Below the pieces are notes generated by a model, which saw nothing but the letters and a program-made list of their open reading frames with translations, made no database searches and had not been told where the DNA came from. Shown here in pieces: positions 5,408 through 57,366 of a DNA stretch of 64,000 nucleotides. Location: the NCBI GenBank assembly GCA_028824125.1, contig JAPPES010000080.1, positions 580-64,579 of the forward strand, in the 5' to 3' direction. Source of the stretch: Candidatus Poribacteria bacterium (lineage in GTDB: Bacteria > Poribacteria > WGA-4E > WGA-3G). The position numbers and the translations under genes were made by a program. Each line of letters starts with the position of its first letter. Positions within the stretch are counted from its first letter, which is position 1.

Positions 5408-5483
5408 AGTCCACAACTTTGCTGTGAGACTTTTCCTTGTATCCGCGTTAATTTTGTGTAATCCGGGATTGAAAAAAGAATAA

Positions 5484-6403: not shown

Positions 6404-7003
6404 CTATTGATCTTCAAGTGTCTTTCGCAACTTATGTGTTGATGTCGCAAGCGACTCTTGCAAATATGGATATGGAAAACCTCCCCATCGGTCAGGTGGT
6501 GGTTCATGGGCTTTTGCTATCTTTAGACTCACAAAAATTGGACCCTCTTGGTTCCAAATTTTTGGGAGAGCGGTTTCAAGTGTCTCTATATCATCAAATT
6601 CATAAACTTGCTCAAAACCTGTCCCCTTCGCAATTGTTGTCCAACTAAAGTCAGCATTTCGCGGAACAGGTTGATTTCCAGTAACCTCATAAGTGCCATT
6701 ATCACAGACAAAAAGAAGATAGTTCGCAGGTGGTTTTTGCAAACCTGTAATCGTTGCGAGTGTACCTAAACACATCAGCATACTCCCATCCCCGTTAAGC
6801 ACGACAACCTTCTTTTCAGGTTTTGCGAGCGCAATACCGAGTGCGAAATCCGCAGCGTGTCCCATCGCACTTCCAACAGAGGCGTAGTCCAATGGATGCG
6901 TTGATATTTTAGCCCACGGCACGCTCATCCCCATCGTGGTTATAACGATTTCGTCTGTTCGCTGCGATGCAATAAGTTTTAGACACTCCTCTTTGATAAG
7001 CAT
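6404..7003 (-). CDS. TPP-binding beta subunit of a sulfopyruvate/phosphonopyruvate decarboxylase-like enzyme (orphan)
   Basis: 199 aa. ..VVVLNGDGSMLMCLGTLATI...FVCDNGTYEVTGNQ.. is the GDG-(x)-NGxY-xTGNQ thiamine-pyrophosphate binding signature of ComE/Ppd beta subunits. No alpha (pyrimidine-binding) subunit is adjacent. Confidence 0.7.
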   Translation of the reverse strand: MLIKEECLKLIASQRTDEIVITTMGMSVPWAKISTHPLDYASVGSAMGHAADFALGIALAKPEKKVVVLNGDGSMLMCLGTLATITGLQKPPANYLLFVCDNGTYEVTGNQPVPRNADFSWTTIAKGTGFEQVYEFDDIETLETALPKIWNQEGPIFVSLKIAKAHEPPPDRWGGFPYPYLQESLATSTHKLRKTLEDQ

Positions 7004-8462: not shown

Positions 8463-8626
8463 TTCTTAATTATCCATCAAAAATCATACGGTAGCAATTA
8501 GACATTATAACTTTTTAATTGTGAATTGTAATCGGTCTTTTATAAAATCTAAAGTTCGTCCGTCGGGTTTCGCTGTGTTCTGTCCTTATGTGTCAATTTA
8601 AGGATTTTCCGAATGTGTGTCCTGCT

Positions 8627-8800
8627 CTTCAGTCCCGTAGGGACGATATGTTTATAGTAGCTCGTGCTATCCCTACTCTCTTAGTCCCGTAGGGACGAAA
8701 TGTTTTCGCAGCACATTGGCAGTTGATATGTCGTTCCTACGGAACTCAAGAGGTGTTGATAATTTTTTCTATAAACATAGCGTTCCTATGGAACTCAAGA
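8627..8800. repeat. MITE family 1 core (double-hairpin GTCCCGTAGGGACGATATGT element), copy lacking clear TIRs
   Basis: Two direct copies of (c)ttagtcccgtagggacga(t/a)atgt are followed by two inverted copies, acatatcgtccctacgggact-like. The same architecture recurs at 14753-15009, 33631-33710 and 52141-52405. Confidence 0.7.
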
Positions 8801-8859
8801 GGTCCGAGACGCTCGGTAAACCTTAATTCAACTTAAATCATTATAATGTCTATTGTTTC

Positions 8860-9996
8860 TTACTGTTCAGGGAGAACTCCAAGCAAATCTGCAATTTCCG
8901 CTTCTGTATTATAGAAATGCGGCGAGACTCTCACACCACTCCCACGCTCGGCAGTAATTATGTTCCGTTCATTGAGCAGCGCATAGAGTTCAGCAGGTGT
9001 ATGGTGATCGCTTTCAAAAACCACGATCCCTGCGCGTTCAGAATCCGACTGAGGGGTGATGACGCGATACCCTTTGGAGTCCAATCCCTTAATTAAGCCT
9101 GCTGTAAGTTCCAAAATATAGTTCTCAATGTTCGAAACACCAATTTCAAGTAATAGTTCAATCGCAGCCTTGAGTCCATATAAACCGATGCTATTATAAG
9201 ACCCCTCTTCAAAACGTGTAGCATCCGGTTTCTGTGTGAGGTCATAATCAAGAAATTCGCGAGGATTCACAACACTTGCCCATCCAACGTTGGTATTAAT
9301 AAGGCGTTCCAGTTTGTCATTAGCACAATAAAAAATCGCCGCGCCCTCTGGTGCCAGCAGCCACTTGTGTCCGTCTGCCGCGAGGATATCAACATGGCTT
9401 GACTTCACATCTACTTCAATCGCACCGAGGCTTTGGATTGCATCCACGACAAACCAGATATCGCGTTCGCGACACATCTCGCCAATTGACTTGATGTCGT
9501 TTCGGAAACCAGACGCAAATTCCACATGACTAATTGTTACGACCCGTGTACGCTCATCAAGTGCGGCTACAATATCTTCAAGATAAATACGCCCTTCGCG
9601 CTCAGGCACCATGCGTGTTTCAACGCCATAGCGTTCCTTCAAACTCCACCAGGGATAAACATTCGCTGGGAATTCGACAGCAGTGGTAACAACGTTATCA
9701 CCTGCTCGCCAATCAATGCCGTTTGCTGCGATGAGTATGCCTTGCGTTGTATTTTTCATAAACGCTATTTCCGTTGCATCAGCATTGATCAGCTGCGCTG
9801 CAACTGACCGACAGCTTTCAATCGTTTCAACCCAGGATTCAACGTTCACAGCACCGTTCACTGTGGCATCTTCTGCAAAGCCAATCATGGCATTCCTCAC
9901 CCGATTTGATAAAGGGGCAACACCAGCATGGTTCATATAAACATAAGATTGGATAACCGGAAATTCGGTTCGCCATTTATCAAGAAACATCTTCAA
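8860..9996 (-). CDS. Class V aminotransferase-fold PLP-dependent enzyme
   Basis: 378 aa. ...ILAADGHKWLLAPEGAAIFYC has the PLP-lysine context of class V aminotransferases and cysteine desulfurases. Its start overlaps the upstream GT2 gene by 17 nt, so they are probably an operon. Confidence 0.8.
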   Translation of the reverse strand: MKMFLDKWRTEFPVIQSYVYMNHAGVAPLSNRVRNAMIGFAEDATVNGAVNVESWVETIESCRSVAAQLINADATEIAFMKNTTQGILIAANGIDWRAGDNVVTTAVEFPANVYPWWSLKERYGVETRMVPEREGRIYLEDIVAALDERTRVVTISHVEFASGFRNDIKSIGEMCRERDIWFVVDAIQSLGAIEVDVKSSHVDILAADGHKWLLAPEGAAIFYCANDKLERLINTNVGWASVVNPREFLDYDLTQKPDATRFEEGSYNSIGLYGLKAAIELLLEIGVSNIENYILELTAGLIKGLDSKGYRVITPQSDSERAGIVVFESDHHTPAELYALLNERNIITAERGSGVRVSPHFYNTEAEIADLLGVLPEQ

Positions 9997-11203: not shown

Positions 11204-11949
11204 TGCGACTCCTTCCGATTTAAAAGAATCTGATGTGCTTCAGCAAGAGAATCAAAGGTGCCCGCATCAATCCATTCACCCTGTAAAAAACTATATTCAA
11301 GTTGTCCGCGATTAATATAAACATTGTTAACCGCAGTAATTTCGTATTCCCCACGTGCCGACGGTTCAATTGTCCGGATGACATCAAATACGATTGAGTC
11401 GTAAAAATAGATACCCACTACCGCGTAATTACTTTTGGGTTGCTCCGGTTTTTCTTCAATTTCTACAATTCGATTCGCATTTAAGGTTGCCACCCCATAA
11501 CGTTCTGGGTCATCAACTTTCTTCAGAAGAACACGGGCACCTGTTTGTTGTGCGTGAAAATCAGAAACGGCTTGTTGAATTGAGGACTCAAAAATATTGT
11601 CTCCCAATAAGACTGCTATTCTACCTCCTGCAGCGAACCCTTCAGCTAAGGCAAGAGCATTGGCAATACCTTTCGCTTCCTCCTGCACTTTATAGGTGAA
11701 TTCGCACCCGAAATCTTTTCCACTCCCCAACGCGTTTACAAAATCCCCTACGTAACCTGGATTTGTAACAATAAGAATATCGGTGATTCCTGCTTCTGTA
11801 AGTTGTCTGACACAGTGAAAAACCATCGGTTCATTACCAACAGGCAGCAGATGTTTGCTGGTAACCTTCGTCAGCGGATATAAACGGGTACCTAAACCTC
11901 CTGCAAGGATTACCCCTCTTAGTATTGCTTCTTTTGTGGTTTTCGACAT
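11200..11949 (-). CDS. Sugar-phosphate (or LicC-like) nucleotidyltransferase
   Basis: 249 aa. AILRGVILAGGLGTRLYPLTKVTSKHLLPVGNEPMV is the G-x-G-T-R-L nucleotidyltransferase motif. The size matches short RfbF/LicC-type enzymes. Confidence 0.8.
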   Translation of the reverse strand: MSKTTKEAILRGVILAGGLGTRLYPLTKVTSKHLLPVGNEPMVFHCVRQLTEAGITDILIVTNPGYVGDFVNALGSGKDFGCEFTYKVQEEAKGIANALALAEGFAAGGRIAVLLGDNIFESSIQQAVSDFHAQQTGARVLLKKVDDPERYGVATLNANRIVEIEEKPEQPKSNYAVVGIYFYDSIVFDVIRTIEPSARGEYEITAVNNVYINRGQLEYSFLQGEWIDAGTFDSLAEAHQILLNRKESH

Positions 11950-12901: not shown

Positions 12902-13067
12902 ATTCGCCTCCGTACTCTATAATCAAGGTTTATAAAAGGAAATACAATCTACTATAAGTTTGCTGTTAAATCATTGTATAAATTTTACGCTGATTTGTCA
13001 ACAGGTTTGTTGCACAGTAAAAAAATGACTCCGTCACTTACTAAAAATTATAAAACAGTACTTTTTT

Positions 13068-14627: not shown

Positions 14628-14651
14628 ATAGCACAAACTGTTAGTTTGTAC
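14628..14651. repeat. Host palindrome P (ATAGCACAAACTGTTAGTTTGTAC), an unoccupied site
   Basis: gcacaaactg / tagtttgt(a)c is an inverted repeat immediately downstream of the TPR gene stop. A half-site gacgcaaactaaag lies at 14659-14676. Confidence 0.6.
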
Positions 14652-14752
14652 TCTATGAGACGCAAACTAAAGTGAACTTTGAAATTATTGGGACACTTTG
14701 ATAAATCTATTTTGGAACATTACGGACAATAGAGGTTGTAGCACAAACTGTA

Positions 14753-15009
14753 TGAAGATTAATTTATTTATTCGGTAATTTTTCATTATGCATATTCGGA
14801 ACATTTTAAGTGATCTTTAGTCCCGTAGGGACGATATGTTTATAGCAGCGCGGACGACCTCATCCCCTTAGTCCCGTAGGGACGATATGTGTCCGCCAAC
14901 GACATATTTTTACATATCGTCCCTACGGGACTGAAGAGGCGTTGTTCAACGTTTTTCTATAAACATATCGTCCCTACAGGACTAAAGAAATTACCGAAAT
15001 ATTTATTTA
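14753..15009. mobile_element. MITE family 1, full-length copy (~257 bp) with TIRs TGAAGATTAATTTATTTATTCGGTAAT / ATTACCGAAATATTTATTTA, inserted in the centre of a P palindrome
   Basis: Left flank tgtagcacaaactgta, right flank gtttgcgctaca. The internal double-hairpin core matches 8627-8800. It is the near-exact reverse complement of 52141-52405 (for example cgatatgtttatagcagcgcggacgacctcat versus atgaggtcgtccgcgctgctataaacatatcg). No ORF. Confidence 0.75.
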
Positions 15010-15055
15010 GTTTGCGCTACAGAGTGTCCCATTAATTGTAGGTTTTACTATAAAT

Positions 15056-15171
15056 AAAGATTAATTTATTTATTCGGTAATTTTCTGTCCAATGCAGGTG
15101 TACCCGCCTGCTGGTGAGGTTTCCTAACCTCGCCACATTACCGATTTATTTTCTTAAACTTCAAACAGTTT
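15056..15171. mobile_element. MITE family 2 copy (TIR ...TTATTCGGTAAT, core hairpin GGTGAGGTT-tcct-AACCTCGCC), flanked by a 28-bp direct duplication
   Basis: gtttgcgctacagagtgtcccattaatt occurs at 15010-15038 and again at 15168-15196 on either side of the element. The stem has a T-G (U-G) wobble. Confidence 0.65.
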
Positions 15172-15212
15172 GCGCTACAGAGTGTCCCATTAATTATATG
15201 TTCACTATACCT

Positions 15213-15364
15213 AACCCAAGTTGCCACCTATTGCGAATGCTCTTGTCCGAGGGGTTTCTAACCCCGATGTATAACAGAAAACATAAGTATCAGCGGAAAT
15301 ACCTTGTTTTTTAGTAAAAAGCAGTGTCCGCCATCTCGAAATCTTGTCCGTAGCAACTTAGGTT
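15213..15364. mobile_element. MITE family 4 copy (~152 bp; TIRs AACCCAAGTTGCCAC / GTAGCAACTTAGGTT)
   Basis: Near-identical to 20272-20427 and 46890-47043. Internal hairpin ggggtttctaacccc. No ORF. Confidence 0.75.
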
Positions 15365-15453
15365 ATAATTATAGGTTTCACTATATCTTTAAAGTAAGTG
15401 AAAAAGAGTACGCAGCAAATCCATCATTTATTTTTGTGACAATAAACGCATTG

Positions 15454-20271: not shown

Positions 20272-20427
20272 TTAACCTAAGTTGCCACCTATTTGCGAAT
20301 GCTCTTGTCCGAGGGGTTTCTAACCCCGATTAATAACAGAAAACATAAGTATCAGCGGAAATGCCTTGTTTTTTTCGTAAAAAGCAGTGTCCGCTATCTC
20401 GAAATCTTGTCCGTAGCAACTTGAGTT
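20272..20427. mobile_element. MITE family 4 copy, 24 nt upstream of the argS start codon
   Basis: taacctaagttgccacctatttgcgaatgctcttgtccgaggggtttctaacccc...ccgtagcaacttgagtt. Same orientation as the other two copies. Confidence 0.75.
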
Positions 20428-20594
20428 ATTTTATTTTGTCCGCATTTTTTAGTAACCGAATTATATCACAATAGGCATCTCAAGTCAATTTTGTTAACGC
20501 TAAACTAAATAACCCTGAAAAAATCTTGATATTCAAAACAGATTCTGCTAAAATACAGAAAAAAGGCAATACACTGCTAAAGTACACGCTATTT

Positions 20595-25639: not shown

Positions 25640-25656
25640 TTTGTAGCACAATCTGT

Positions 25657-25818
25657 ATGAAGTTTAAGTTATTAATTCGGTAATGTGGCAAGGTTAGGAA
25701 ACCTTGCCAGCAGCAGGTTTACATCTCTGCTGGTGAGGCGGGGAATGCCTAAATGGCATTCATACCGTTGATTTCTTCCTAACCTTGCCACATTACCCAA
25801 TTTATTTTTTAATCTTCA
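25657..25818. mobile_element. MITE family 2 copy inserted in a P-like palindrome (flanks tgtagcacaatctgta / tttagattgtgca)
   Basis: TIRs tgaagtttaagttattaattcggtaat / attacccaatttattttttaatcttca. Core hairpin ggcaaggtt-aggaa-accttgcc. Confidence 0.7.
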
Positions 25819-26311
25819 TTTAGATTGTGCATTCCTGAACGCAAACGAACAGTTTGCTCTACAAAAATTACTCATACCGAGCGCACGTTAATTTAAAAAA
25901 ATTTAAGGGTAGGTTTCAAGAAACACTACCATTCTTGGAAAATAGAATTTGTGGTATTGCACTAACGTTTTACTATAAACATTACAATCCTGAATGAGAT
26001 GTGTTGTTAGACTTAATATGAGACGCAAATTTGTCGCAAATAAATGAAAGGTTATCAATAAAATTATCCCAACGAAAGTCTTCTTCTTGTGCTTTTGATG
26101 CTGCAAAATACACCGCTAATTCGTAATAACCCAATTTTCTATCATCTAACGGTTGTGTATCAGCAGTCCTTTGTTTTGAATCTTTATACATCATGTACCC
26201 CCTAATGGTTAAAGGTTATCCCTCCTAAACCTTTAACGTCATCCTTAAAAACGAGGTTTCATTTTTTTAGACAAACTAACACTGATTACCCTTGCATCCA
26301 ACTCAAAATTT

Positions 26312-30025: not shown

Positions 30026-30229
30026 ATTTATAGTGAAATCCGAAAATATGTGGGCATCTTAATGAAAAACAATCCCAACACGCTCGCGCTGGCGAGGCGG
30101 GGAATCATGGCGAACACCTTATGCGTATTCGCCTAAATGGCAAGGTCCCATAGCGATAGCGTGTGGGGAGACTACCGTTGATTTCTTCCGAACCTCATCA
30201 ATGTCCAGGTAATTGTGGTTTTACTATAT
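30026..30229. mobile_element. MITE family 3 copy (TIRs TTATAGTGAAATC / GGTTTTACTATA, extended core)
   Basis: Shares the core ctggcgaggcggggaatcatggcgaa...ccgttgatttcttcc with family 2 copies at 25657 and 35645. Confidence 0.7.
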
Positions 30230-31936: not shown

Positions 31937-32053
31937 TAATACCATTTCTGATATATAATGTCTCTTTTTTGTAGCATAAACTTTCCAGTTTGTGCCACAT
32001 TTCGCTTCATTTCTAACAACCGCTAATGGACAGAAATTGATAGAAATGGTATA
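31937..32053. mobile_element. MITE family 5 copy (TIRs AATACCATTTCTGATA / TAGAAATGGTATA) carrying a P palindrome at its centre
   Basis: taataccatttctgat...tgtagcataaactttccagtttgtgccaca...agaaatggtataaac. The same architecture occurs at 38367-38482. Confidence 0.6.
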
Positions 32054-33529: not shown

Positions 33530-33630
33530 TTATTATTCCTAATTTAACGAGTTGTGCTAAATAACTGATTGTTCAATATTGTTTCACAATTAGATAACGT
33601 CCTGTTAGTTTTTATCGTTGGTTGGTTCCT

Positions 33631-33710
33631 TCTTTAGTCCCGTAGGGACGATATGTTTATAGAAAAACGTTGAATACCCTATCTTTAGTCCCGTAGGGAC
33701 GATATGTGTC
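33631..33710. repeat. MITE family 1 fragment (two direct hairpin arms only)
   Basis: ctttagtcccgtagggacgatatgtttatagaaaaacgttgaataccctatctttagtcccgtagggacgatatgt is identical to the left half of 52141-52405. A family 4 terminal fragment (tgtccgtagcaacttgagt) lies at 33806-33826. Confidence 0.6.
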
Positions 33711-33849
33711 CAACATAAAGTTCAATATATGTGAAAACAGGACAAACAAATAGTTAACTAACACAAGTCGTTAATTTAAAAATAGTATCTGCAGGCCTAA
33801 AATTTTGTCCGTAGCAACTTGAGTATATGTGCTTGAAAAATCCTTACAC

Positions 33850-36112: not shown

Positions 36113-36174
36113 TTGTAGGAGCGAGCTTCGCTCGCGACATCAGACGCAGGGTCGCGAGCGAAGCTCGCTCCTAC
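36113..36174. repeat. Perfect 25-bp inverted repeat with 12-nt loop (TGTAGGAGCGAGCTTCGCTCGCGAC...GTCGCGAGCGAAGCTCGCTCCTACA)
   Basis: Seen directly. It lies in the 1-kb gene-free region 35512-36508. That region also holds another compound palindrome at 35821-35975 (tctgaatcgcgga...tccgcgattcaga), a ccaaacgcgcgtttgg dyad at 36196-36211, and inverted copies of aactttacacacc..ggcgtcaatt at 36030 and 36250. Confidence 0.7.
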
Positions 36175-36508
36175 AGAATGTCCGAAGTGCCAAAGTCCAA
36201 ACGCGCGTTTGGCAATGAATTCGCGACTACGAACACTTATCTTCTTAAATTGACGCCTATGATGACAAAAACTTTACACACCCATAAAAGAAGGCCTGTC
36301 CAGTTTTAACATTAACTCACATTCATTCTTCAGACAAAAGGTGTATCTTTTCCGCTAAGAAATCGTTTTATTAGGGATAAGGTTTACACAAATTGAATAT
36401 AGTGTGACCTATTTGAGATGCAAAATCGAAATTATCGTGAAAACCGTCCTCGCTTCATCCACGAGGTTGAAGAAACGGGGTGCGAACAATTTTATTCGTG
36501 AATGAATT

Positions 36509-38371: not shown

Positions 38372-38482
38372 TACCATTTCTGATAATATATCTCTCTTAT
38401 GTAGCACAAACTGTCAGTTTGTGCCTTCCAACACCACAATTCATGAAATTCAGTGATGAGAAATTATTTAGAAATGGTATAA
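38367..38482. mobile_element. MITE family 5 copy with central P palindrome (GTAGCACAAACTGTCAGTTTGTGCC at 38401-38425)
   Basis: aataataccatttctgataatat...gtagcacaaactgtcagtttgtgcc...ttagaaatggtataa. It lies between two convergent genes. Confidence 0.6.
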
Positions 38483-42334: not shown

Positions 42335-42452
42335 AATTTATAGTAAAATCCGAAAATATGTTCACATTTCAATGAACAACAATCCCACACCATCATGCTG
42401 GCGAGGTTTCCTAACCTCGCCAATGTCCAGATAATTGTGGATTTCACTATAA
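42335..42452. mobile_element. MITE family 3 copy
   Basis: tttatagtaaaatccgaaaatatgttcacatttcaatgaacaacaatcccacacc...ctggcgaggtttcctaacctcgcc...aattgtggatttcactataa. Confidence 0.7.
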
Positions 42453-42579
42453 TCTTGAATAGTTATAAATGCGTTGATACAACCAATAGAATTGCAATTT
42501 CGCATATAATCTGTTATAGTTAATTGTATTGAATCCGCGTAGGAAAAACAACATTATCGTTGTGCTGAGGAGTAACACA

Positions 42580-44217
42580 ATGAAAGCATCAGAATTAGTT
42601 GTGAAATGTTTAGAGAATGAGGACGTTGACTATATTTTTGGGTTACCGGGTGAAGAAAACATGGATATGTTAGATGCATTATTAGAATCTAATATCCAAT
42701 TTATTCAAACACGCGATGAACGGGGCGCCGCATTTATGGCAGATGTGTACGGGCGGTTAACAGGTAGGGCCGGGGTGTGTCTTGCTACGCTTGGTCCTGG
42801 TGCGATGAACCTTGTCACTGGCGTTGCTGACGCAAATATGGATAGAGCTCCGCTCGTTGCTATCACAGGGCAAGCGAGTTTAGACAGAATGCACAAAGAA
42901 TCGCATCAATATATGGATGTGGTTTCCGTCTTCAAACCGATGACAAAATGGAATACACTTGTGCATCTACCTGAAATTATTCCGGAATCTATCAGCAAAG
43001 CCTTCAAGACAGCAGTAGGTGAAAAACCTGGCGCAACACACATTGATTTACCAGAAGACGTGGCAAAGATGCAAATTGATGCCGAACCGATGCGGCACGA
43101 TTTTCCCAGTGAAGCGGAACCTGTTGTATCTTGTCTGCAACGCGCGGCACAACTGATTAACGATGCCAAACAACCGATTATCCTTGCGGGCAATGGTGTT
43201 GTTCGCCAAAACGCTTCTCGGATTTTAACACAATTTGCGGAGATGACAAATATCCCTGTAGCACACACCTTTATGGGCAAAGGGAGTATTCCGTGGACGC
43301 ATCGGCTTTCGCTCCTCAGCGTTGGACTTCAAGCAAACGATTTCGTCTCTTGCGGGTTCGACCGAGCAGACCTCGTTATCGCTATCGGTTACGATATTGT
43401 TGAATACCATCCGCGCTTGTGGAATCCTAATAGAGACAAAAAACTAATCCACATTGACACAGAACCGAGTGAAAGTGATGCATCCTATGTCACGGATGTA
43501 GAAATGGTGGGGAACATTAGACAGAGTCTCAGACATTTAATGGCACAAGAAATTTTTCCCAAAGATGCGGAGTATGCTTCAAATACCTTACGAAAGATTA
43601 TCCTCGATCAACTTTCTGAGCATCGTGATGACAAGGAATTTCCGATAAAACCACAAAAAATCCTAAGCGATATCCGTTCCGTACTTGCCGAAGACGATAT
43701 ACTTATCTCTGATGTTGGGGCACATAAAATGTGGATTGCCCGTATGTATCCGTGTTATCAACCGAATACATGCATCATCTCAAACGGGTTTGCCTCTATG
43801 GGCATTGCGGTTCCAGGGGCTTTTGTAGCAAAACTGATCTATCCAGAACGGAAATGTCTCGCTGTTTGCGGTGATGGCGGATTCCTAATGAACTCACAGG
43901 AGCTCGAAACCGCTACAAGAGTCGGTGTGCCGTTTGTTACACTTATTTTCAATGACGAAGCGTATGGTCTGATTGAATGGAAACAGATGAACGGTTTTGG
44001 CAGACCCGCACATATTGATTTCACGAATCCTGATTTTGTGAAATACGCTGAAGCGTTTGGTGCTAAAGGATATCGAGTTGAAGGTAGTGATGAACTTGTG
44101 CCAATACTGAAAGATGCATTCAGTCAGAATGTTCCTTCGGTTATTGATTGTCCTGTGAATTATGCCGAGAATCTACGGTTAACAAATGAACTTGGTCAGT
44201 TGACATGTCCAATATGA
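42580..44217 (+). CDS. Thiamine-pyrophosphate enzyme of the acetolactate synthase (AlsS/IlvB-like) family
   Basis: MKASELVVKCLENEDVDYIFGLPGEENMDMLDAL... is the N-terminal Pyr domain. ...GDGGFLMNSQELETA... is the TPP GDG motif. 545 aa from ATG 42580, which has a GAGGAG RBS. The track start at 42529 adds 17 aa. Confidence 0.8.
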   Translation: MKASELVVKCLENEDVDYIFGLPGEENMDMLDALLESNIQFIQTRDERGAAFMADVYGRLTGRAGVCLATLGPGAMNLVTGVADANMDRAPLVAITGQASLDRMHKESHQYMDVVSVFKPMTKWNTLVHLPEIIPESISKAFKTAVGEKPGATHIDLPEDVAKMQIDAEPMRHDFPSEAEPVVSCLQRAAQLINDAKQPIILAGNGVVRQNASRILTQFAEMTNIPVAHTFMGKGSIPWTHRLSLLSVGLQANDFVSCGFDRADLVIAIGYDIVEYHPRLWNPNRDKKLIHIDTEPSESDASYVTDVEMVGNIRQSLRHLMAQEIFPKDAEYASNTLRKIILDQLSEHRDDKEFPIKPQKILSDIRSVLAEDDILISDVGAHKMWIARMYPCYQPNTCIISNGFASMGIAVPGAFVAKLIYPERKCLAVCGDGGFLMNSQELETATRVGVPFVTLIFNDEAYGLIEWKQMNGFGRPAHIDFTNPDFVKYAEAFGAKGYRVEGSDELVPILKDAFSQNVPSVIDCPVNYAENLRLTNELGQLTCPI

Positions 44218-44262
44218 TCATAGCAAAGACGTCAATTTTACGAAAACGGTAGGCGCGTTTTG

Positions 44263-44375
44263 ATGAAGATTAATTTATTAATTCGGTAATTTGGAGAAAG
44301 GTCCAGTGCGGTTAGGAAACCGCACCTACCGGGTTTGGGAAGAATTAGAATTACCGAAATATTTATTTAATCTTC
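44263..44375. mobile_element. MITE family 2 copy inserted in the centre of a GGCGCGTTT...AAACGCGCC palindrome
   Basis: Left flank aggcgcgttt(tga), right flank (tgt)aaacgcgccga. An intact paralogous palindrome agcgcgtttacaaaacgcgcct lies at 44415-44436. Core hairpin gtgcggtt-aggaa-accgcac. Confidence 0.7.
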
Positions 44376-44533
44376 ATGTAAACGCGCCGAGTCCAAACTT
44401 CATACACTATAAACAGCGCGTTTACAAAACGCGCCTACCAGGGGTGGAAAACTGCTAATCGACGGCTATAGGTTTAGCGTTGCTCTACCCGACCTACGGA
44501 TTACTTTTTTACAAGGAGGAGATTTTACTTAAA

Positions 44534-45574
44534 ATGGCAGTTTCAACAATTGAATGGGCAGACGGTCGGATAAAATTAATAGATCAAACATTGCTGCCCA
44601 ATGAATTTAAACAGATTTATTGTGATGACCTTCCATCAATTTGGGAGGCGATTAAATCCTTGCGTGTGCGAGGTGCACCTGCGATCGGTATTGCGGGGGC
44701 ATTAGGCGCAGTGCTCGGCATTTGGGATTCTACTGCAAAAACGTACGAGGCATTTGCAGCTGAGCTCAAGTCGGCAACCGATTATCTTGCAACATCACGG
44801 CCAACGGCCGTTAATCTCTTTTGGGCACTTGATAGAATGACGAGAACTTCGGAAGAGAATAAGCACCTTTCTGTTCCCGAACTCAAAGAGGTATTGCTTG
44901 CTGAAGCACAAGAGATCATTGAAGAGGATAAAGCGATGTGTCGTGCTATTGGACAACACGGCATGGCGTTGCTCAATGAAAACGATACGATTTTGACGCA
45001 TTGCAACGCTGGCGGATTAGCTACGTCTGATTATGGGACAGCATTAGCCGTAATGTTCAGCGCACACGAAGCTGGTAAAAATATTCAGGTTTTTGCTGAT
45101 GAAACTCGCCCGTTGTTGCAAGGCGCACGTCTCACTACGTGGGAACTAATGCAAGCAGGCATTGACGTAACGCTTATCTGTGATAATATGGCAGCGCAAG
45201 TCATGAAAGAGGGCAAAATTCAGTGCGTTATTGTCGGTGCAGATCGGATCGCTGCAAACGGGGACACTGCAAACAAGATCGGTACCTATAATGTTGCTAT
45301 CCTTGCACAAGCACACGAAATCCCCTTTTATGTCGCAGCCCCGACATCAACGTTAGACTTTGCGCTGGAAACCGGTGCAGAGATTCCGATTGAACAACGT
45401 TCAGCAGAAGAGGTGACAGAAGGGTTCGGCAAACTTACAGCACCTAAAGGCGTGAAGGTCTATAGCCCCGCTTTTGACGTTACGCCTGCATCATTAGTTA
45501 CCGCAATTATTACCGAAAAAGGCGTTGCACATCCGCCTTATACGGAAAGTTTGAAGGCATTACGCGACGCATAA
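44534..45574 (+). CDS. mtnA: Methylthioribose-1-phosphate isomerase (eIF-2B alpha/beta/delta family)
   Basis: MAVSTIEWADGRIKLIDQTLLP...LRVRGAPAIGIAGALGAV...GADRIAANGDTANKIGTY... is collinear with MtnA. 346 aa from ATG 44534. Confidence 0.85.
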   Translation: MAVSTIEWADGRIKLIDQTLLPNEFKQIYCDDLPSIWEAIKSLRVRGAPAIGIAGALGAVLGIWDSTAKTYEAFAAELKSATDYLATSRPTAVNLFWALDRMTRTSEENKHLSVPELKEVLLAEAQEIIEEDKAMCRAIGQHGMALLNENDTILTHCNAGGLATSDYGTALAVMFSAHEAGKNIQVFADETRPLLQGARLTTWELMQAGIDVTLICDNMAAQVMKEGKIQCVIVGADRIAANGDTANKIGTYNVAILAQAHEIPFYVAAPTSTLDFALETGAEIPIEQRSAEEVTEGFGKLTAPKGVKVYSPAFDVTPASLVTAIITEKGVAHPPYTESLKALRDA

Positions 45575-45582
45575 ATCAGGCG

Positions 45583-46872
45583 TTATGCTGCTTTGGCAAT
45601 ATTAGCGCGGGTACCATTGACATCAAAGCATGCGTACTGATTTGTGTGCATAATCTGCGTAGCAAAGGTCATCGCTTGTTTTTCGGTAAGATATCCGTCT
45701 GCAATTTCTGCTTCAAGCGCACGTCGGATTTCGTTTCGTGCTTGAATAGCGTACGCCATTGCACTTGTGGGCCACCCTGTGTCGCCGCCAAATGCGAATA
45801 ATTTGTTTGATGGCACAGCATGAATGCACCGTCGCAGAAAATCACGCGAGCTATATGGATCTATACTCCATGCCCAGCAAAAGTCGACCCAGATGTTGCG
45901 ATAATGCTTCGCAAGTGCTACTAATTCATCATTGTAAGGATAGGAGATGTGCATCAGGACGAACTTTGCATCCAGATAGCGAGCGAATAAGGCGCACATA
46001 TTGCCAGCGGGGATACGGCGGACCGGCATTCGGTCATTGCCTGCATAGTAGCCGGTGTGGATCTTGAACGGAAGATTATGTTCAATTGTGAGTTCAACGC
46101 CGCGTGCCCAACACCAATCGCCAAGGCATAGGCGCGTCGCTTCATCAATCTCCTCTGCCGGTTTTGTTAGCACAGCATTGAGTGCTGTGGACGCATCGGT
46201 ATCACTCCGTTGAATCCAGTTAAGTGTGCGGTTGTAAGCGTGTTGCGCTTTCACCGCGATTGCGCAGGGAGCATGTTTAGCGAAAATCGCCTCCATGCCG
46301 CTTTTCAACGAGGTAAGGTCTTTGACTTCAACCCCTGTTTCAGCATGGATAGCACTCGGATTAACTTGCCCATTGCAGAAAGTTGCCCACGAAAGGTCGT
46401 ATAAGAAAAAATCGGGACCGGAGGTGTCGGGAGTACACGGCCAACTAAAATCATCCGTTTGGATATGATCGAGTTTCGCAAGATCGTGTAGGATATGATA
46501 GCGTTTACCTGGGGTGCGAATTGTTTTCAATTTATCTTGTGCTTGCGCGAGTCCATCACCAGTTAGTTCGTCAAGTCCATAGATATGTTTAGCAATAAGG
46601 CTGACTGCTTCGCCGTACCCCGTAAATTGTGTCGCTTCCCATGCTTCTCGGACACCTTCAAACCGTGGCTTGATATCTTTAGATGAATCCATTAAATCAC
46701 GCATCGCTTCAGGGGTAGCACCTGCAGTATGAAGGTCAGCAGGCACATAATTCCCGAACAGATCCTGTAAGATATCAGGACCATTTTCAACCCAGTCATT
46801 TTCACGTCGCATGTGTTCATGTGTATCAACTAAACGGATAGATTGAATATGATGTGTCAAATCTGTTGCCAT
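45583..46872 (-). CDS. Metal-dependent TIM-barrel amidohydrolase-family protein (amidohydrolase-2-like), function unknown
   Basis: ...IRLVDTHEHM... is the N-terminal DxHxH metal motif. 429 aa from ATG 46872 (MATDLTH), which has an AAGGAGA RBS 7 nt upstream. The track start 46896 would lie inside the MITE family 4 copy. Confidence 0.6.
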   Translation of the reverse strand: MATDLTHHIQSIRLVDTHEHMRRENDWVENGPDILQDLFGNYVPADLHTAGATPEAMRDLMDSSKDIKPRFEGVREAWEATQFTGYGEAVSLIAKHIYGLDELTGDGLAQAQDKLKTIRTPGKRYHILHDLAKLDHIQTDDFSWPCTPDTSGPDFFLYDLSWATFCNGQVNPSAIHAETGVEVKDLTSLKSGMEAIFAKHAPCAIAVKAQHAYNRTLNWIQRSDTDASTALNAVLTKPAEEIDEATRLCLGDWCWARGVELTIEHNLPFKIHTGYYAGNDRMPVRRIPAGNMCALFARYLDAKFVLMHISYPYNDELVALAKHYRNIWVDFCWAWSIDPYSSRDFLRRCIHAVPSNKLFAFGGDTGWPTSAMAYAIQARNEIRRALEAEIADGYLTEKQAMTFATQIMHTNQYACFDVNGTRANIAKAA

Positions 46873-46889
46873 ATAAATTCTCCTTATGT

Positions 46890-47043
46890 AACCCAAGTTG
46901 CCACCTATTTGCGAATGCTCTTGTCCGAGGGGTTTCTAACCCGGATGTATAACAGAAAACATAAGTATCAGCGGAAATGCCTTGTTTTTTGAGTAAAAAG
47001 CAGTGTCCGCCATCTCGAAATCTTGTCCGTAGCAACTTAGGTT
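46890..47043. mobile_element. MITE family 4 copy abutting the RBS of the amidohydrolase gene
   Basis: aacccaagttgccacctatttgcgaatgctcttgtccgaggggtttctaacccggatg...tccgtagcaacttaggtt. Confidence 0.75.
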
Positions 47044-47184
47044 TATGTAGATTTTTTGGATAGTAGGCGTTAATAGTCGTTAGTTTGTTGTTTCGTAAGA
47101 TGCAGCGGCACGGGCAAAGTAGAAAGGTGTTTTCACTAAAATGCTTGAAAATATGAACAAATTGTGTAAAATAGAAAATCATAC

Positions 47185-47222
47185 TTGACAAATACATTAG
47201 ATTATGATGTACTATAGTATAC
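47185..47222 (+). promoter_or_regulatory. Promoter candidate (TTGACA ... TATAGT/TATACT) with a ~340-nt structured leader upstream of the CSD-Hfq-like gene
   Basis: ttgaca at 47185-47190. Several -10-like hexamers lie 17-25 nt downstream. The leader contains the stem cgccaaat-N11-atttggcg (47291-47317) and the related dyad ccaaacgcgtattggcgttt. Confidence 0.3.
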
Positions 47223-47567
47223 TTTGGAATGTTTCCCTGTTTCAGCGAGATTGATACAGTGAGTTGTAGGTCGGGTAGAGCTTGCAAAACCCGCCAAATG
47301 CCATACGCGTATTTGGCGTTGATTTGGACAAATACCAAACGCGTATTGGCGTTTAGGTCTAATATTCAAAACGGTTATATTTACATTATAGAGAAAAAGT
47401 GTTGTTATGTCAAAGGAAACGTCCAATTCAGCTGCGAAGCAAATTTTCGTGGCGTACCATTTTGTTGTTGCCCTTTTTGAGGTAACCGCAATCATAAATG
47501 CTCGCGCGCAGGGGCGCGAATGGTCATAGGCATCTTCCCGATGCGGAGGAAAAGCCAGGAGCAGATA

Positions 47568-48503
47568 ATGCCTACAGGACGAATTAAATACTACAATTTG
47601 AATAAAGGATTCGGATTTATTGCACAAGATAGCAGCGAAGAGGATGTTTTTCTACATAATTCCGCGATTAAGTACGCAGAATACGAGGAACTTCGAGTTG
47701 GACAACGAGTCAAGTATACCGTTGTTGAAGGTGAAAAAGGATTAGTTGCTAAAAACGTTGAAGTGTTGTTAACACCGACAGAACGGCGGTGGTTGCGACA
47801 AGGCAAAACTATTATTCCACGTGGCTACTCTGGGTTTCCAGCCCAAAATCAAGATCAGTTTTTTGATGAAGATGAAGCAGCCGACGAGAACTCAGAGACA
47901 AACTCAAAACACACACAAGAACGGTGGCGAAAAAAATCGCAAAAGAGCGATTCCGCACCACAACCTGAAATCGGCACAGAAGGAAAGGAACAAACTTCCA
48001 GACAGCTAAGTTTCGGTGACCTCTATATTCTCAAGCAAATTAATTTTGAAACACCGATGTTCTTTGCACTTTATAACCATGAGCAATTACCTGCTATCGT
48101 GTTGGAAATGACACTTGCTGGATTAACGCTCAGTTGCAACGAGAAAGAAAAAGTCGTGCCGAAAACTGAGATTAAGTATTGTTATAAGGAAGTTGACGCA
48201 GAAAATGTAATGGCACTTCTTCACTATAATGAAGATATTAAAACAAAGCAACTTAAACCTGCACGCTCTCAAGATGAGGTGTACGCAATTGATGCAGAAA
48301 TAGTCCGAGATGCTCGCAGAGACGGGAACACAATCGAAATAATTCTCCGTGAAGGCGAAATTTTCCAGGGGACAGTTGACTGGATCAGTCCGTATGAAAT
48401 CAAAATAGTATTGAAAAACGGTTCTAAGGTCGTTGTTTTTCGACATGCTATTTGCGAATTTTCTGTTGTTGAAGAGGAAAAAATAGATGGAAACACAACC
48501 TGA
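47568..48503 (+). CDS. Cold-shock-domain protein fused to a C-terminal Hfq-like (Sm-fold) domain
   Basis: 311 aa from ATG 47568 (AGGAG RBS). The N-terminus GRIKYYNLNKGFGFIAQDSSEEDVFLHNSAIKYAEYEELRVGQRVKYTVVEGEKGLVAKNVEV is a canonical CspA-type cold-shock domain with RNP1-like GFGFI. The C-terminal 48 aa, TIEIILREGEIFQGTVDWISPYEIKIVLKNGSKVVVFRHAICEFSVV, align with the Hfq Sm1/Sm2 core as I recall it ([43 protein letters not shown]): shared I-x-L-x-x-G-x-x-x-Q-G, LKN, and V-[FY]-[RK]-H-A-I. The middle region (IVLEMTLAGLTLSCNE..KVVPKTEIKYCY) may be a second degenerate Sm-like unit. Confidence 0.65.
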   Translation: MPTGRIKYYNLNKGFGFIAQDSSEEDVFLHNSAIKYAEYEELRVGQRVKYTVVEGEKGLVAKNVEVLLTPTERRWLRQGKTIIPRGYSGFPAQNQDQFFDEDEAADENSETNSKHTQERWRKKSQKSDSAPQPEIGTEGKEQTSRQLSFGDLYILKQINFETPMFFALYNHEQLPAIVLEMTLAGLTLSCNEKEKVVPKTEIKYCYKEVDAENVMALLHYNEDIKTKQLKPARSQDEVYAIDAEIVRDARRDGNTIEIILREGEIFQGTVDWISPYEIKIVLKNGSKVVVFRHAICEFSVVEEEKIDGNTT

Positions 48504-49092
48504 ACATGTCACTGAGCATGTAATGAAGGCGTATCAAGAACTTGTAGCGGAAATAGACCAAGATGTCAAACGGGTTCGTGAAGAATACGGCCGTGTGCCT
48601 TGTCCCACGGATTGTTTTCAATGTTGTCGTAATACTTCAACAATTCCGATTGGCGAAGTAGAAGCACGCGATCTCAAAATTGCTTTGGATGCACTTCCAC
48701 AACAGATACGCGAACATATTCGTCAAAAAGCGCAGCGCACGATTCAGATATTGGAAGCAAAGGGCTATACACCTGAAAATATGGTAAAAGACTCAGGGAT
48801 GGAAGCGATTGAAGCGGTCAAGGGAAAACCTTTTGGCGAATGTCCGATGCTTATCGGTGGGGTGTGTTCTGTTTATGAGCACCGCCCAGTGATTTGCCGT
48901 GTATGGGGTTATCCGATTGATAACGGTAAAGAATTGGCTTGCTGCAAAAAGACTTTCATCGGTCAGCATAAAAACTATAAACCTGTGAAATATGCAGATT
49001 ATTGGCAGCGGTGTAAAAAACTTAGCGAGGCACTCGGTGCTGTTCAGAAAACACCAAACTGTTATTTAGTTATTCAGTTGTTAGGGGCGTAA
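48487..49092 (+). CDS. YkgJ-family cysteine-cluster protein (putative Fe-S/Zn-binding, UPF0153)
   Basis: 201 aa. CPTDCFQCCRN and ...CPMLIGGVCSVYEHRPVICRVWGYP are the CxxCxxCC ... C-x-IY-x-RP-x-CR signatures of YkgJ. It overlaps the CSD-Hfq-like gene by 17 nt, so the two are translationally coupled. Confidence 0.75.
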   Translation: METQPEHVTEHVMKAYQELVAEIDQDVKRVREEYGRVPCPTDCFQCCRNTSTIPIGEVEARDLKIALDALPQQIREHIRQKAQRTIQILEAKGYTPENMVKDSGMEAIEAVKGKPFGECPMLIGGVCSVYEHRPVICRVWGYPIDNGKELACCKKTFIGQHKNYKPVKYADYWQRCKKLSEALGAVQKTPNCYLVIQLLGA

Positions 49093-49107
49093 TGCGGATT
49101 GAACGCG

Positions 49108-49228
49108 ATTTATAGTAAAATCTAAAAATATGTTTACATTTCAATCAACAACAATCTCTACACACGCTCTCGCTGGCGAGGTTTCCTAACCTCGCGAACG
49201 TAAAGGTAATTGTGGATTTTACTATAAC
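49108..49228. mobile_element. MITE family 3 copy
   Basis: tttatagtaaaatctaaaaatatgtttacatttcaatcaacaacaatctctacacacgctctcgctggcgaggtttcctaacctcgcg...aattgtggattttactata. Confidence 0.7.
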
Positions 49229-49260
49229 TTTGGCAGTTTGAAAGAAGCGAGAAAAGCAAC

Positions 49261-49626
49261 TTAATTAACCTCTGAGTCAGAAAGTTCGCGTAGAAAGGTA
49301 AATGTATAAATTCCAGTCTTGTGTCCATCGCTCCACATTAACTGAATAGCATAACGTCCAACACGTTGAATTCCCACCACATGTAATTTTTCCCAATATT
49401 CTTCCGATGGTATCACTCTAAATGGGTCATTTTCTTGTCTCACCGCATCACATCGCGCACACGGACACCTCTCCCGGAGTAATCGGTATGTGTGTTCACT
49501 CCGATGTCCATCTTTCCATTGAATAGCTAAGCTATGCGGTAAACGTTTGATTTCGGTAGGTTGATATTCCTGCATTTGAAGTCGAACGGGGATGCCAATT
49601 TGCAGCACATTAGACACATGCTTCAA
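49261..49626 (-). CDS. DUF971 (gamma-butyrobetaine hydroxylase N-terminal-like) family protein
   Basis: 121 aa. ...LRERCPCARCD... and ...YAIQLMWSDGHKTGIYTFTFL match the CPCAxC zinc-ribbon-like signature of DUF971. Confidence 0.7.
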   Translation of the reverse strand: MKHVSNVLQIGIPVRLQMQEYQPTEIKRLPHSLAIQWKDGHRSEHTYRLLRERCPCARCDAVRQENDPFRVIPSEEYWEKLHVVGIQRVGRYAIQLMWSDGHKTGIYTFTFLRELSDSEVN

Positions 49627-50430: not shown

Positions 50431-50460
50431 TTGTAGCATAAACTTTCCAGTTTGTGCCAC
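50431..50460. repeat. Host palindrome P (TTGTAGCATAAACTTTCCAGTTTGTGCCAC) between the sulfatase stop and mobA start
   Basis: Identical to the copy at 31967-31997. Confidence 0.55.
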
Positions 50461-50463
50461 ATT

Positions 50464-52094: not shown

Positions 52095-52121
52095 TTGTAG
52101 AGCAGACTGTTAGTTTGCGTC
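52095..52121. repeat. Host palindrome P variant (TGTAGAGCAGACTGTTAGTTTGCGTCC)
   Basis: Adjacent to the left flank of the MITE family 1 copy at 52141. Confidence 0.5.
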
Positions 52122-52140
52122 CTCACAGGCACAATCTAAA

Positions 52141-52405
52141 TGAAGATTTAATAAATATTTCGGTAATTTCTTTAGTCCCGTAGGGACGATATGTTTATAG
52201 AAAAACGTTGAACAACTTCTCTTTAGTCCCGTAGGGACGATATGTCCAAAATATGTCGTTGGCGGACACATATCGTCCCTACGGGACTAATGGAATGAGG
52301 TCGTCCGCGCTGCTATAAACATATCGTCCCTACGGGACTGAAGAGTGCTTAAAATGTTCCGAATATGCATAATGAAAATTACCGAATTAATAAATTAATC
52401 TTCAT
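52141..52405. mobile_element. MITE family 1, full-length copy (~265 bp), reverse orientation relative to 14753-15009
   Basis: TIRs tgaagatttaataaatatttcggtaattt / aaattaccgaattaataaattaatcttca. Flanks (ggcacaatctaaa / tatagattgtgctaca) reconstitute a palindrome. Partial family 3 and family 4 termini lie at 51868-51918 and 52016-52040. Confidence 0.75.
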
Positions 52406-52451
52406 ATAGATTGTGCTACAAGGTGGCAACTAATGTTACTTTAGCAAATAA

Positions 52452-57184: not shown

Positions 57185-57306
57185 TTTTATTTCTCCGCTT
57201 TAGCATAGTGTCTGTTGTTAATACATTTTATGTTTGAACACGCTTACATGAAAATTAAAATAACTGGGCAATTTCTTAGCAATGATCAGTGCGGTTTGGA
57301 CTGTCT

Positions 57307-57366
57307 GTAACACAAACTGTTAGTTTGTACATCTGTGGAAACGCAAACTAACAGTCAGCGCTACAA
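57307..57366. repeat. Two adjacent P-type palindromic units (GTAACACAAACTGTTAGTTTGTAC and GCAAACTAACAGT...) downstream of moaC
   Basis: actgttagtttg at 57317 and its reverse complement caaactaacagt at 57342. Seen directly. Confidence 0.5.

Follow-up and report, generated by a model that had tools for sequence, protein, structure and literature searches.

Insertion of an IS630-family element and its MITE at the centre of hairpin-forming palindromes in Candidatus Poribacteria, as suggested by sequence comparison

A 64,000-nucleotide (nt) stretch of Candidatus Poribacteria contig JAPPES010000080.1 (the window, by which the whole of the analysed stretch is meant) contains at 44243-44439 a transposable element of the miniature inverted-repeat type (MITE), here called MITE-2, lodged between the two halves of a palindrome, with an intact version of that palindrome close by. 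The locus raises the question of what a filled and an empty site are doing side by side, and whether the palindrome was the target of the element or travels with it. To judge from sequence comparison, MITE-2 and an IS630-family insertion sequence (IS) with the same termini probably insert on the dyad axis of hairpin-forming palindromes, a choice that would replace the TA target and 2-bp duplication of that family.

The filled and the empty palindrome at 44243-44439

Direct reading of this locus (site E) resolves the flanks of MITE-2 into a split repetitive extragenic palindrome (REP). The left half of this REP-1 (44248-44262, plus strand) consists of a GTAG-type head with its arm, GGTAGGCGCGTTT (44248-44260), and the loop bases TG, its right half (44378-44388, plus strand) of G 44378, a T and the arm AAACGCGCC (44380-44388). 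MITE-2 itself (44263-44377, strand unassigned; ATGAAG...CTTCAT) is a 115-nt, non-autonomous derivative of the IS630-family IS, with terminal inverted repeats (TIRs) at 44263-44290 and 44350-44377 and a REP-like hairpin, GTGCGGTT-AGGA-AACCGCAC, in its core (44306-44325). The arm GGCGCGTTT is the exact reverse complement of AAACGCGCC, and the split palindrome reads GGCGCGTTT-TG|GT-AAACGCGCC, where G 44262 and G 44378 are the two copies of a 1-nt target duplication. Once reconstituted, the REP-1 hairpin has a 3-nt loop and a folding energy of -11.6 kcal/mol (z = -4.5).

An earlier note on this DNA, made from the letters alone, had described these flanks as palindrome halves and had reported an intact version without insert nearby; both descriptions hold. 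It also placed its sites correctly, although MITE-2 ends at 44377 rather than 44375 and a half-site given as 52118 should be 52129. The intact version is REP-2 (44416-44439, plus strand), which combines GCGCGTTT-ACA-AAACGCGC with a CCTACC tail, i.e. a GTAGG head on the minus strand. Its palindrome (44416-44434), 38 nt downstream of MITE-2, is the sole match in the window, with 0 expected in shuffled sequence. REP-1 and REP-2 belong to one inverted REP doublet (REPIN), an uninterrupted paralogue of which is present in its entirety at locus L026 (2597-2673; loci carry L numbers): GGTAGGCGCGTTT-TGT-AAACGCGCC (2597-2621), the intact paralogue of REP-1, is followed after 27 nt by GGCGCGTTT-ACA-AAACGCGCCTACC. 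At 44243-44439, a single REPIN supplies both the filled and the empty site, one of its two REPs being occupied.

The same note had taken the palindromes for terminator-like features of the host. A search for intrinsic terminators across 44150-44600 returned a single match, which is weak, lies on the wrong (minus) strand (44435-44415) and does not rise above shuffled sequence, and direct reading found no T run behind the plus-strand hairpins of site E. The terminator interpretation does not survive here.

Palindromic flanks, target anatomy and the autonomous partner

An exact-pattern scan for MITE-2 termini, in one genome per species, returned at least 119 loci, nearly all from the sponge symbionts Candidatus Poribacteria; two contigs bear the label Anaerolineae/Anaerolineales and one the label Chloroflexi. 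When termini were paired, they gave 97 elements among the matches listed, most of them 100-130 nt long, some longer owing to nested inserts, and seven of 1240-1249 nt. Ninety-five copies from the listed loci and the window had usable flanks, and perfect arms of at least 7 bp adjoined the element in 63 of these (66%), arms of at least 5 bp in 75 (79%). At the same loci, arms of at least 7 bp occurred at 0.99% of random positions outside open reading frames (ORFs) and at 0.25% of all random positions. The genome-wide comparison that the earlier note had proposed, of joined flanks with random intergenic sites, thus comes out in favour of palindromic flanks by a wide margin.

The full set comprises 129 copies (the window, the at least 119 Poribacteria genome loci and 24 further loci), with MITE copies ranging from 100 to 380 nt. 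Perfect flanking arms of at least 5 bp are present in 104 copies (81%): 84 with a one-base duplication, five in which a continuous palindrome is cut exactly at its centre without duplication (e.g. GGCTG|CAGCC), four that are palindromic and symmetrically positioned without a matching base, and 11 that are palindromic and slightly off-centre. MITE and IS copies show an identical flank pattern.

The arms comprise at least 30 different sequences, while the 28-bp termini stay constant. Among them are GCACAAWCT, GGYGNGGTT, GGCGCGCTT, CCCCCTT, GTCCC and GGGGAATGCC, as well as unique ones such as GGTCACGCT, GGATTTTTT, GTTGTTT and GGCACAC. A target logo, built on 73 sites with 30 distinct arms, yields N7-Y-T-D-[N]-H-A-R-N'7 as the reconstructed empty site. 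In this logo, 97% of sites pair at position +/-2, which holds T/A in 83-89%; Y/R stands at position +/-3, pairing at positions 4-9 amounts to 80-90% without base preference, and from position 11 onward it equals background. The YTNNNAR motif is insufficient, arms of at least 7 bp being found at only 0.57% of 19,749 such sites.

Of 59 clear cases, 53 have the same base to the left and right of the element, and each of the four bases occurs among them. Many copies are nested in members of other repeat families, and 13 of 15 comparisons of joined flanks with uninterrupted homologous repeats give exactly one additional base at the junction. Intact loops have split counterparts (TAC and TA|AC, GTT and GT|TT, AAC and AA|AC and, comparing L026 with site E, TGT and TG|GT), which identifies the duplicated base as the central one of a 3-nt spacer. 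A rule of dyad-axis insertion, with a 1-nt duplication for odd spacers and none for even ones, fits these cases. Insertion into the centre of pre-existing palindromes is, on comparisons of this kind, well supported, and the view that the palindrome halves are target and not element is borne out by the diversity of arms, by near-identical IS copies in different palindromes and by homologues that are one base shorter.

The seven long elements of the scan represent the autonomous partner, a 1241-bp IS with 28-bp TIRs (ATGAAGATTAATTTATTAATTCGGTAAT) and a single ORF of 384 amino acids (aa). The 28-bp TIRs of MITE-2 are identical to those of the IS; beyond the TIRs, the IS and the MITEs have nothing in common. 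Small, non-coding and multicopy, with the termini of an autonomous IS and the same kind of duplication, MITE-2 has the properties by which MITEs are defined. The transposase scores 170.6 bits against NCBIfam NF033545 (transpos_IS630; cut-off 100) and 73.5 bits against Pfam DDE_3, with further matches to HTH_32, HTH_29, HTH_28 and HTH_23 (N-terminal helix-turn-helix, HTH). A sequence search against Protein Data Bank (PDB) chains gave no significant match; a fold search with the predicted structure gave as best PDB matches Mos1 (3HOS, 4U7B and 5HOO; E about 3e-5) and the catalytic domain of Sleeping Beauty (5CR4). The element accordingly resembles its family in a DDE transposase recognised by the IS630 model, a predicted Tc1/mariner-like fold, a single ORF, a length of ~1.1-1.3 kb and TIRs. 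It departs from the family in its integration, which involves neither TA nor TA duplication: the junctions hold no TA and one variable base or none.

Three residues assigned as catalytic by motif, D191, D273 and E334, are invariant in 33 homologues. The usual spacing between the second D and the E is ~34-37 residues in the IS630 family; D273 and E334, placed by motif and invariance, are 60 apart, some 25 more, and the Pfam DDE_3 match spreads 164 residues over 138 profile positions. The intervening stretch of the transposase (P0121, residues 273-334; LLPQTTRFVRPTPPNWSEKPSKKIGKLEKLPIE) contains invariant residues including E319 and is of low confidence in the structural model.

Twenty full-length IS copies, 10 of each of two variants, are 99.6-100% identical over 1241 nt and have unrelated flanks; arms of at least 8 bp flank 18 of the 20, and a 1-nt duplication is present in 18 of the 20 as well. 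To judge from these copies, transposition of the IS is recent. Relatives of the IS at 63-64% identity make the same target choice, as in CACCCC-TA|AC-GGGGTG, where an intact CACCCC-TAC-GGGGTG lies at a distance of 60 nt, which indicates that palindrome targeting is old within the clade. The transposase has 625 homologues at E <=1e-10, and the best 120 of these 625 are 61-100% identical to it and almost all 384 aa long.

The target palindromes carry GTAG heads (tGTAGCACAAACT... and GGTAGGCGCGGTT...CCTACC; also (G)GTAGGYGNGGTT...CCTACC and TGTAGCRCAAWCT...GCTACA), their hairpins fold stably as single strands with 3-nt loops, and ~1 Mb of Poribacteria loci holds 233 intact hairpins with a 3-nt loop. 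Inverted doublets are found in the window at 57306-57365, 25642-25863, 52096-52420 and 44248-44439, in L026 (2597-2673) and at two positions (9691-9749 and 11510-11567) of L237, a relative of the same species (chromosome OZ244889.1) that is 94-97% identical to the window over 21 kb. Genes for REP-associated tyrosine transposases (RAYTs) were found in related genomes, and none in the window: L009 6964-7484 scores 126.8 bits against NF047646 (cut-off 80) and is flanked by GGTAGGTGCGGTT palindromes, one of which carries nested MITE-2 copies, and a partial RAYT of 52 bits (L227 75-302) lies between two GCRCAAACT doublets, one with the IS. GTAG heads, inverted doublets and flanking of RAYT genes together mark the palindromes as mobile REP/REPIN elements rather than host terminators. 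The REP/RAYT connection drawn by the earlier note is thus right for the target palindromes and wrong for MITE-2.

Within the window, the terminus pattern ATGAAGATTAA-N3-A-N3-WTTCGGTAAT occurs at eight termini (0 expected) and GCACAAACTG seven times (0.13 expected). A second palindrome family had been reported as split by MITEs, and GCACAAWCT halves do bracket MITE-2 at three window sites. One of these, site C, is a plus-strand REPIN at 25642-25863 with MITE-2 in the loop of its first REP (TGTAGCACAATCTGT, the MITE, then TTAGATTGTGC-(9 nt)-GCAAACgaaCAGTTTGCTCTACA); MITE-2 spans 25657-25819, the halves 25642-25656 and 25820-25830, and a T is duplicated (25656, 25820). A REPIN of the same family in the opposite orientation (52096-52420, minus strand) likewise holds MITE-2 in one REP loop, between GCACAATCTAA and ATAGATTGTGCTACA. 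Here the element (52140-52405) carries a nested ~190-nt palindromic insert, the halves lie at 52129-52139 and 52406-52420, and an A is duplicated (52139, 52406). In the third case (14737-15021, plus strand), copy A of MITE-2 (14752-15009), truncated at its right terminus and with a nested insert, separates TGTAGCACAAACTGT from GTTTGCGCTACA (REP halves 14737-14751 and 15010-15021). It is followed at 15054-15179 (plus strand) by a degenerate copy B (15054-15164) and the REP right half AC-AGTTTGCGCTACA (15165-15179). The left end of copy B abuts the end of another MITE (...ACTATAA), and the matching REP left half, GCAAACT-AA, lies at 14662-14670.

Unoccupied counterparts, all on the plus strand, are a REP at 14628-14651 (ATAGCACAAACT-GTT-AGTTTGTAC), a complete REPIN at 57306-57365 (TGTAACACAAACT-GTT-AGTTTGTAC-(12 nt)-GCAAACTAACAGTCAGCGCTACA) and a REP at 38400-38424 (TGTAGCACAAACT-GTC-AGTTTGTGC) inside another MITE (TIR ATACCATTTCT...). 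Two further copies, listed as intact at 31969 and 50431 in the earlier note, are present at 31970-31999 and 50432-50461 as near-intact, imperfect REPs with a 4-nt loop. All five MITE-2 copies of the window are located 3' of stop codons, because REPs lie there; palindromes do explain the pile-up behind genes, as had been suggested, and terminators are not those palindromes. Scans of the window for tRNAs and Rfam families gave no matches.

Proposed mechanism and competing explanations

By analogy with its family, the transposase would bind the shared inverted repeats and move IS and MITE-2 by cut-and-paste, a dimeric transpososome directing the two 3'-OH ends at the two target strands. Integration would fall on the dyad of a short palindrome whose arms, 8-10 bp of essentially any sequence, close in Y-T...A-R, usually around a 3-bp spacer. 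As the anatomy suggests, strand transfers on either side of the central base pair would duplicate the central base, leaving a 1-nt target-site duplication, and even, continuous palindromes would yield none. Since arm positions are constrained only to complementarity, recognition would most likely be of structure or symmetry (an extruded hairpin, a cruciform apex or a highly deformable centre) rather than of base sequence. In Mos1, the TA target is bent by 147 degrees and the target adenines are flipped out (PMC5481204); a palindrome with a short spacer, breathing into a small cruciform, would supply a ready-made distorted centre of that sort. REP and REPIN elements, linked to RAYT genes, would be the commonest such palindromes in these genomes, and their position just 3' of genes would cause MITE copies to gather there, to nest and to adjoin unoccupied sister REPs, as at 44243-44439. 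That the ~25 extra residues between D273 and E334 take part in targeting is speculation. The most far-reaching form of the proposal holds that an IS630-superfamily clade (hundreds of members in sponge symbionts, 61-100% identity among those examined) has dropped the TA rule, reads structure at any hairpin apex with a stagger (0 or 1 bp) that depends on loop parity, maybe by means of the ~25-residue insertion, and parasitises the REPIN/RAYT system as its chief landing pad; we would place it just short of an even chance.

Several points weigh against dyad-axis insertion into palindromes or against parts of the mechanism proposed for it. No perfect arm of at least 5 bp flanks 25 of the 129 copies (~19%), many if not most of which have imperfect arms, chimeric half-REPs or another MITE abutting. 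AG|GA and TC|CT junctions fit a 3-nt loop with duplication as well as insertion at the centre of a 4-nt loop without one, an ambiguity that arises because AGGA and TCCT 4-nt loops are common. A stagger of 0-1 bp is unreported for DDE transposases, for which the reported range is 2-9 (PMC5481204). The AlphaFold model of the transposase is mediocre, with a mean predicted local distance difference test score of 64, and the choice between recognition of structure and of a symmetric duplex is a matter of inference only. Finally, most of the data come from metagenome-assembled genomes (MAGs), where repeats are error-prone; long-read chromosomes show the same picture.

Comparison of orthologous loci likewise falls short, in that a clean pair, the same REP with and without MITE-2, was not recovered at the sites examined. 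At site E, the two metagenomic relatives found to be closest (95% and 92% aa identity) have an unrelated spacer between an ALS-like gene and mtnA, and an identical MtnA protein is encoded on one other short contig only (L120), which ends 124 nt upstream of the gene. Relatives compared at site C have REPIN and MITE or neither, with no intermediate among 10 loci. The orthologous loci L203-L212 lack the whole block, and L202 has the same REPIN and MITE; neither is present in relatives with 92-93% identical YvcK, whereas the closest relative (96%) has both in the same position and, in one assembly, a deleted remnant, which implies that the REPIN is itself an insertion. At L237 11448-11478, the REP orthologous to the intact one at window 14631-14651 is broken after GT by the first 17 nt of a MITE-2 terminus; this occupied allele is truncated and the remainder of the copy rearranged. 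A joined-flank BLAST among all loci found paralogous repeats only, no orthologues, and the paralogues served as homologous empty sites. The search for occupied and unoccupied alleles in relatives that the earlier note had recommended has thus produced the uninterrupted paralogues and not the orthologous pair.

Of the competing explanations, the one that survives best, although we consider it improbable, is weakly specific insertion, into YT-NNN-AR or AT-rich bendable DNA, with a palindrome bias that arises from survival in neutral REPs. Insertions into genes would be selected against, REPs are neutral intergenic landing pads, and a short target consensus does exist. However, palindromes with arms of at least 7 bp are found at only 0.57% of YTNNNAR sites and at ~1% of non-coding positions taken at random, and this rarity means that neutral intergenic DNA offers far more non-palindromic sites. 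Moreover, insertions lie exactly on the dyad and not anywhere in the repeats, and the pattern is already there in 18-19 of the 20 very recent copies (99.6-100% identical).

Somewhat less credit still is due to the idea that homologous recombination or gene conversion between REP arms, instead of targeted transposition, carries the MITE from one REP to another. Chimeric flanks made of halves of two REPs indicate that recombination between copies does occur, and most targets come from two or three REP families; yet conversion needs homologous arms and many targets have the unique ones cited above, the duplicated central base differs by site and matches the local loop, and the full-length IS keeps a conserved, intact transposase gene with its 625 homologues. 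The palindrome halves could also be extended, diverged inverted repeats of the element that move with it, with no host target involved, as the joint presence or absence of REPIN and MITE at site C might suggest, together with REP hairpins that ride inside other MITE families in composite units that do move. This explanation is very improbable and largely refuted by the contrast between constant 28-bp termini and at least 30 unrelated adjoining arms, by near-identical IS copies between different arms at unrelated loci, by abundant uninterrupted arm homologues one base shorter, and by a duplicated base that varies with the target loop.

IS200/IS605 elements have subterminal hairpins and no TIRs, and insert 3' of a fixed 4-5-nt target without duplication. 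The single-strand mechanism favoured by the earlier note, in which an IS200/IS605-type Y1 enzyme, a TnpB-associated system or a RAYT recognises hairpins and mobilises MITE-2, finds an argument in the action of HUH enzymes on hairpins and in the RAYT genes beside the same palindromes in related Poribacteria genomes, and is refuted, with next to no probability left to it, by the long TIRs that MITE-2 shares with an IS encoding an IS630-family DDE transposase, by the same target choice of that IS, by a 1-nt duplication and dyad-symmetric insertion unexpected of IS200/IS605, and by the absence of a Y1 gene from the window.

Other repeats, known systems and significance

Dyad-axis insertion into palindromes, the reading preferred here, had been extended by the earlier note to MITEs in general, and in this it went too far. 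The TATAGTRAAA family and the ACCCAAGTTGCC family were considered as further palindrome-targeting MITEs and rejected, the empty sites in L079 not being palindromes, and none of the clean empty sites of three other MITE families (comparisons with L237 and L079) was palindromic. Palindrome targeting is thus specific to the IS630-type element and not a trait of MITEs generally.

Several of these other families are represented in the window. A family with TIRs TATAGTRAAATC...GATTTYACTATA and the core hairpin GGCGAGGTT-TCCT-AACCTCGCC occurs at 49110-49227, 42336-42457 and 30026-30222; the first of these copies is absent from the orthologous site in L079 (4700-4726), which is AT-rich and not a palindrome. 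A third family (ACCCAAGTTGCCACC...GTAGCAACTTAGGTT) occurs at 46891-47042, 15211-15369, 20273-20432 and 33771-33830. A 7-nt duplication, TTATGTA (46884-46890 and 47043-47049), borders its copy at 46891-47042, and the empty L079 orthologue has a single TTATGTA. A fourth family (TIR ATACCATTTCT...AGAAATGGTAT; window 31939-~32045, 38371-~38480 and 50395-~50500) has a REP hairpin at its core (GTAGCAYAAACT-loop-AGTTTGTGC), so that three of the intact 'host' palindromes of the earlier note ride in a mobile element; a copy at L237 2212-2325 is missing at the orthologous window position 5418. L237 further contains a 150-nt insertion (9622-9772) that includes a complete REPIN (9691-9749) and is flanked by a CTATAA duplication, absent at window position 12957 (the relative being 96% identical), and REPINs seem to move inside larger carriers.

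In five cases (window 15009-15052/15054, L229, L048, L051 and L093), a TATAGTRAAA-type MITE end (...ACTATAA) abuts the left terminus of MITE-2 in one REP loop. This junction recurs beyond coincidence and may reflect either a preferred TA target that arises when the first element inserts or a composite unit that moves as a whole. Chimeric flanks, with halves of two different REP families, were seen at L042 1232-1537, L046 573-862, L083 753-853, L089 2753-3039, L114 1470-1571 and L010 275-401; such flanks are what one would expect recombination between MITE copies from separate loci, i.e. genome rearrangement, to leave behind. A hairpin with a GTAG head (TGTAGGAGCGAGCT-loop-AGCTCGCTCCTACA / ...GCTCGCGA), single or in tandem triplets (window 36114-36175; L122 175-270; L079, reverse complement, about 6850-6900), is probably a further REP family of these genomes. 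A highly palindromic element of ~180 nt, composed of CTTTAGTCCCGTAGGGACGATATGT units, lies nested in two MITE-2 copies (14813-14988 and 52168-52345) and also occurs alone (8625-8801 and 33630-33707 in the window); its GTCCC-TAC-GGGAC hairpins are MITE-2 targets in L032 and L101. Exact MITE-2 termini are also present on MAG contigs labelled Anaerolineales, Chloroflexi and Anaerolineae (L022, L024 and L057), the L057 copy sitting in the palindrome GGTCACGCT-TG|GT-AGCGTGAC, either by transfer between co-resident sponge symbionts or through binning error. Coding DNA is 94-97% identical between window 3842-24972 and L237 and 84-89% between 46013-49614 and L079, nearly every intergenic spacer in these comparisons differs by gained or lost small repeats, and short-read contigs of this organism end at such repeats.

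The IS630/Tc1/mariner superfamily is characterised by a strict TA target and a 2-bp stagger (PMC5481204). The IS described here resembles it, and the bacterial MITEs RUP of S. pneumoniae and Correia elements, in its DDE transposase with HTH, its single ORF in ~1.2 kb, its TIRs and its MITEs that share only termini (PMC2229807; PMC2817692). It differs from canonical IS630 members in targeting, with no TA, the centre of palindromes of arbitrary arms, in duplicating one nucleotide or none, and in its 60-residue D-E spacing. The REP/REPIN-RAYT systems match the target palindromes in their GTAG heads, extragenic inverted doublets and RAYT flanking (PMC3116915; PMC2817692); they describe the landing pad and not MITE-2, and REPs are also cargo in several MITE families here.

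Elements that insert into REPs are known from other families. According to a 2006 survey, which cites Wilde et al. 2003, IS1397 and ISKpn1 (IS3 family) insert into REPs of enterobacterial bacterial interspersed mosaic elements (BIMEs), a choice determined by the transposase (PMC1525189). Like the present IS, these are DDE elements landing inside REP palindromes; unlike it, they belong to another family and are each specific for one type of palindromic unit, which points to recognition of sequence, as against at least 30 arm sequences here, including palindromes that are not REPs. IS1397 and ISKpn1 insert in the central loop part of the palindromic unit and duplicate 3-4 bp. The IS110-family elements IS621, ISPpu9, ISPpu10 and ISPa11 have all or nearly all of their copies in REPs (PMC1525189; PMC12288879), and they differ in having a DEDD recombinase, no TIRs, no duplication and a bridge RNA that pairs with a specific sequence (PMC11208160). 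In S. aureus, the IS1182-family element IS1272 targets inverted repeats that lie downstream of genes and vary in sequence and size, with stem-loop recognition inferred and no conventional target-site duplication (PMC5678879). It replaces the target inverted repeat, whereas here both arms remain intact and the central base is duplicated, and its transposase is of a different family.

The 2006 survey listed REP targeting in five IS families (IS3, IS110, IS4, IS256 and IS5), IS630 not among them (PMC1525189), and the present element would add a sixth. Our literature search, which had most subscription journals and ISfinder outside its reach, found no paper on IS630 members in connection with hairpins, palindromes, cruciforms, REPINs or duplication of 1 bp, nor any that deals with the MITEs of Poribacteria; an earlier description of a hairpin-targeting IS630 member may exist. 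The element appears to be the first REP-targeting one that accepts palindromes regardless of their sequence.

For Poribacteria, insertion of this kind accounts for intergenic regions in which small repeats are stacked and nested in one another, with differences even among genomes that are 94-97% identical, and for the breaks of short-read assemblies in these regions. An 'inverted repeat outside the inverted repeat' is, moreover, a useful signature of hairpin-targeted insertion for genome scans. For the IS630/Tc1/mariner superfamily, the TA rule is regarded as fixed and underlies tools such as Sleeping Beauty and Himar. A shape-selecting branch with a duplication of one base or none would, if true, show that the catalytic core can be re-aimed, and would provide a tractable system in which to ask how a DDE transpososome recognises a hairpin or cruciform.

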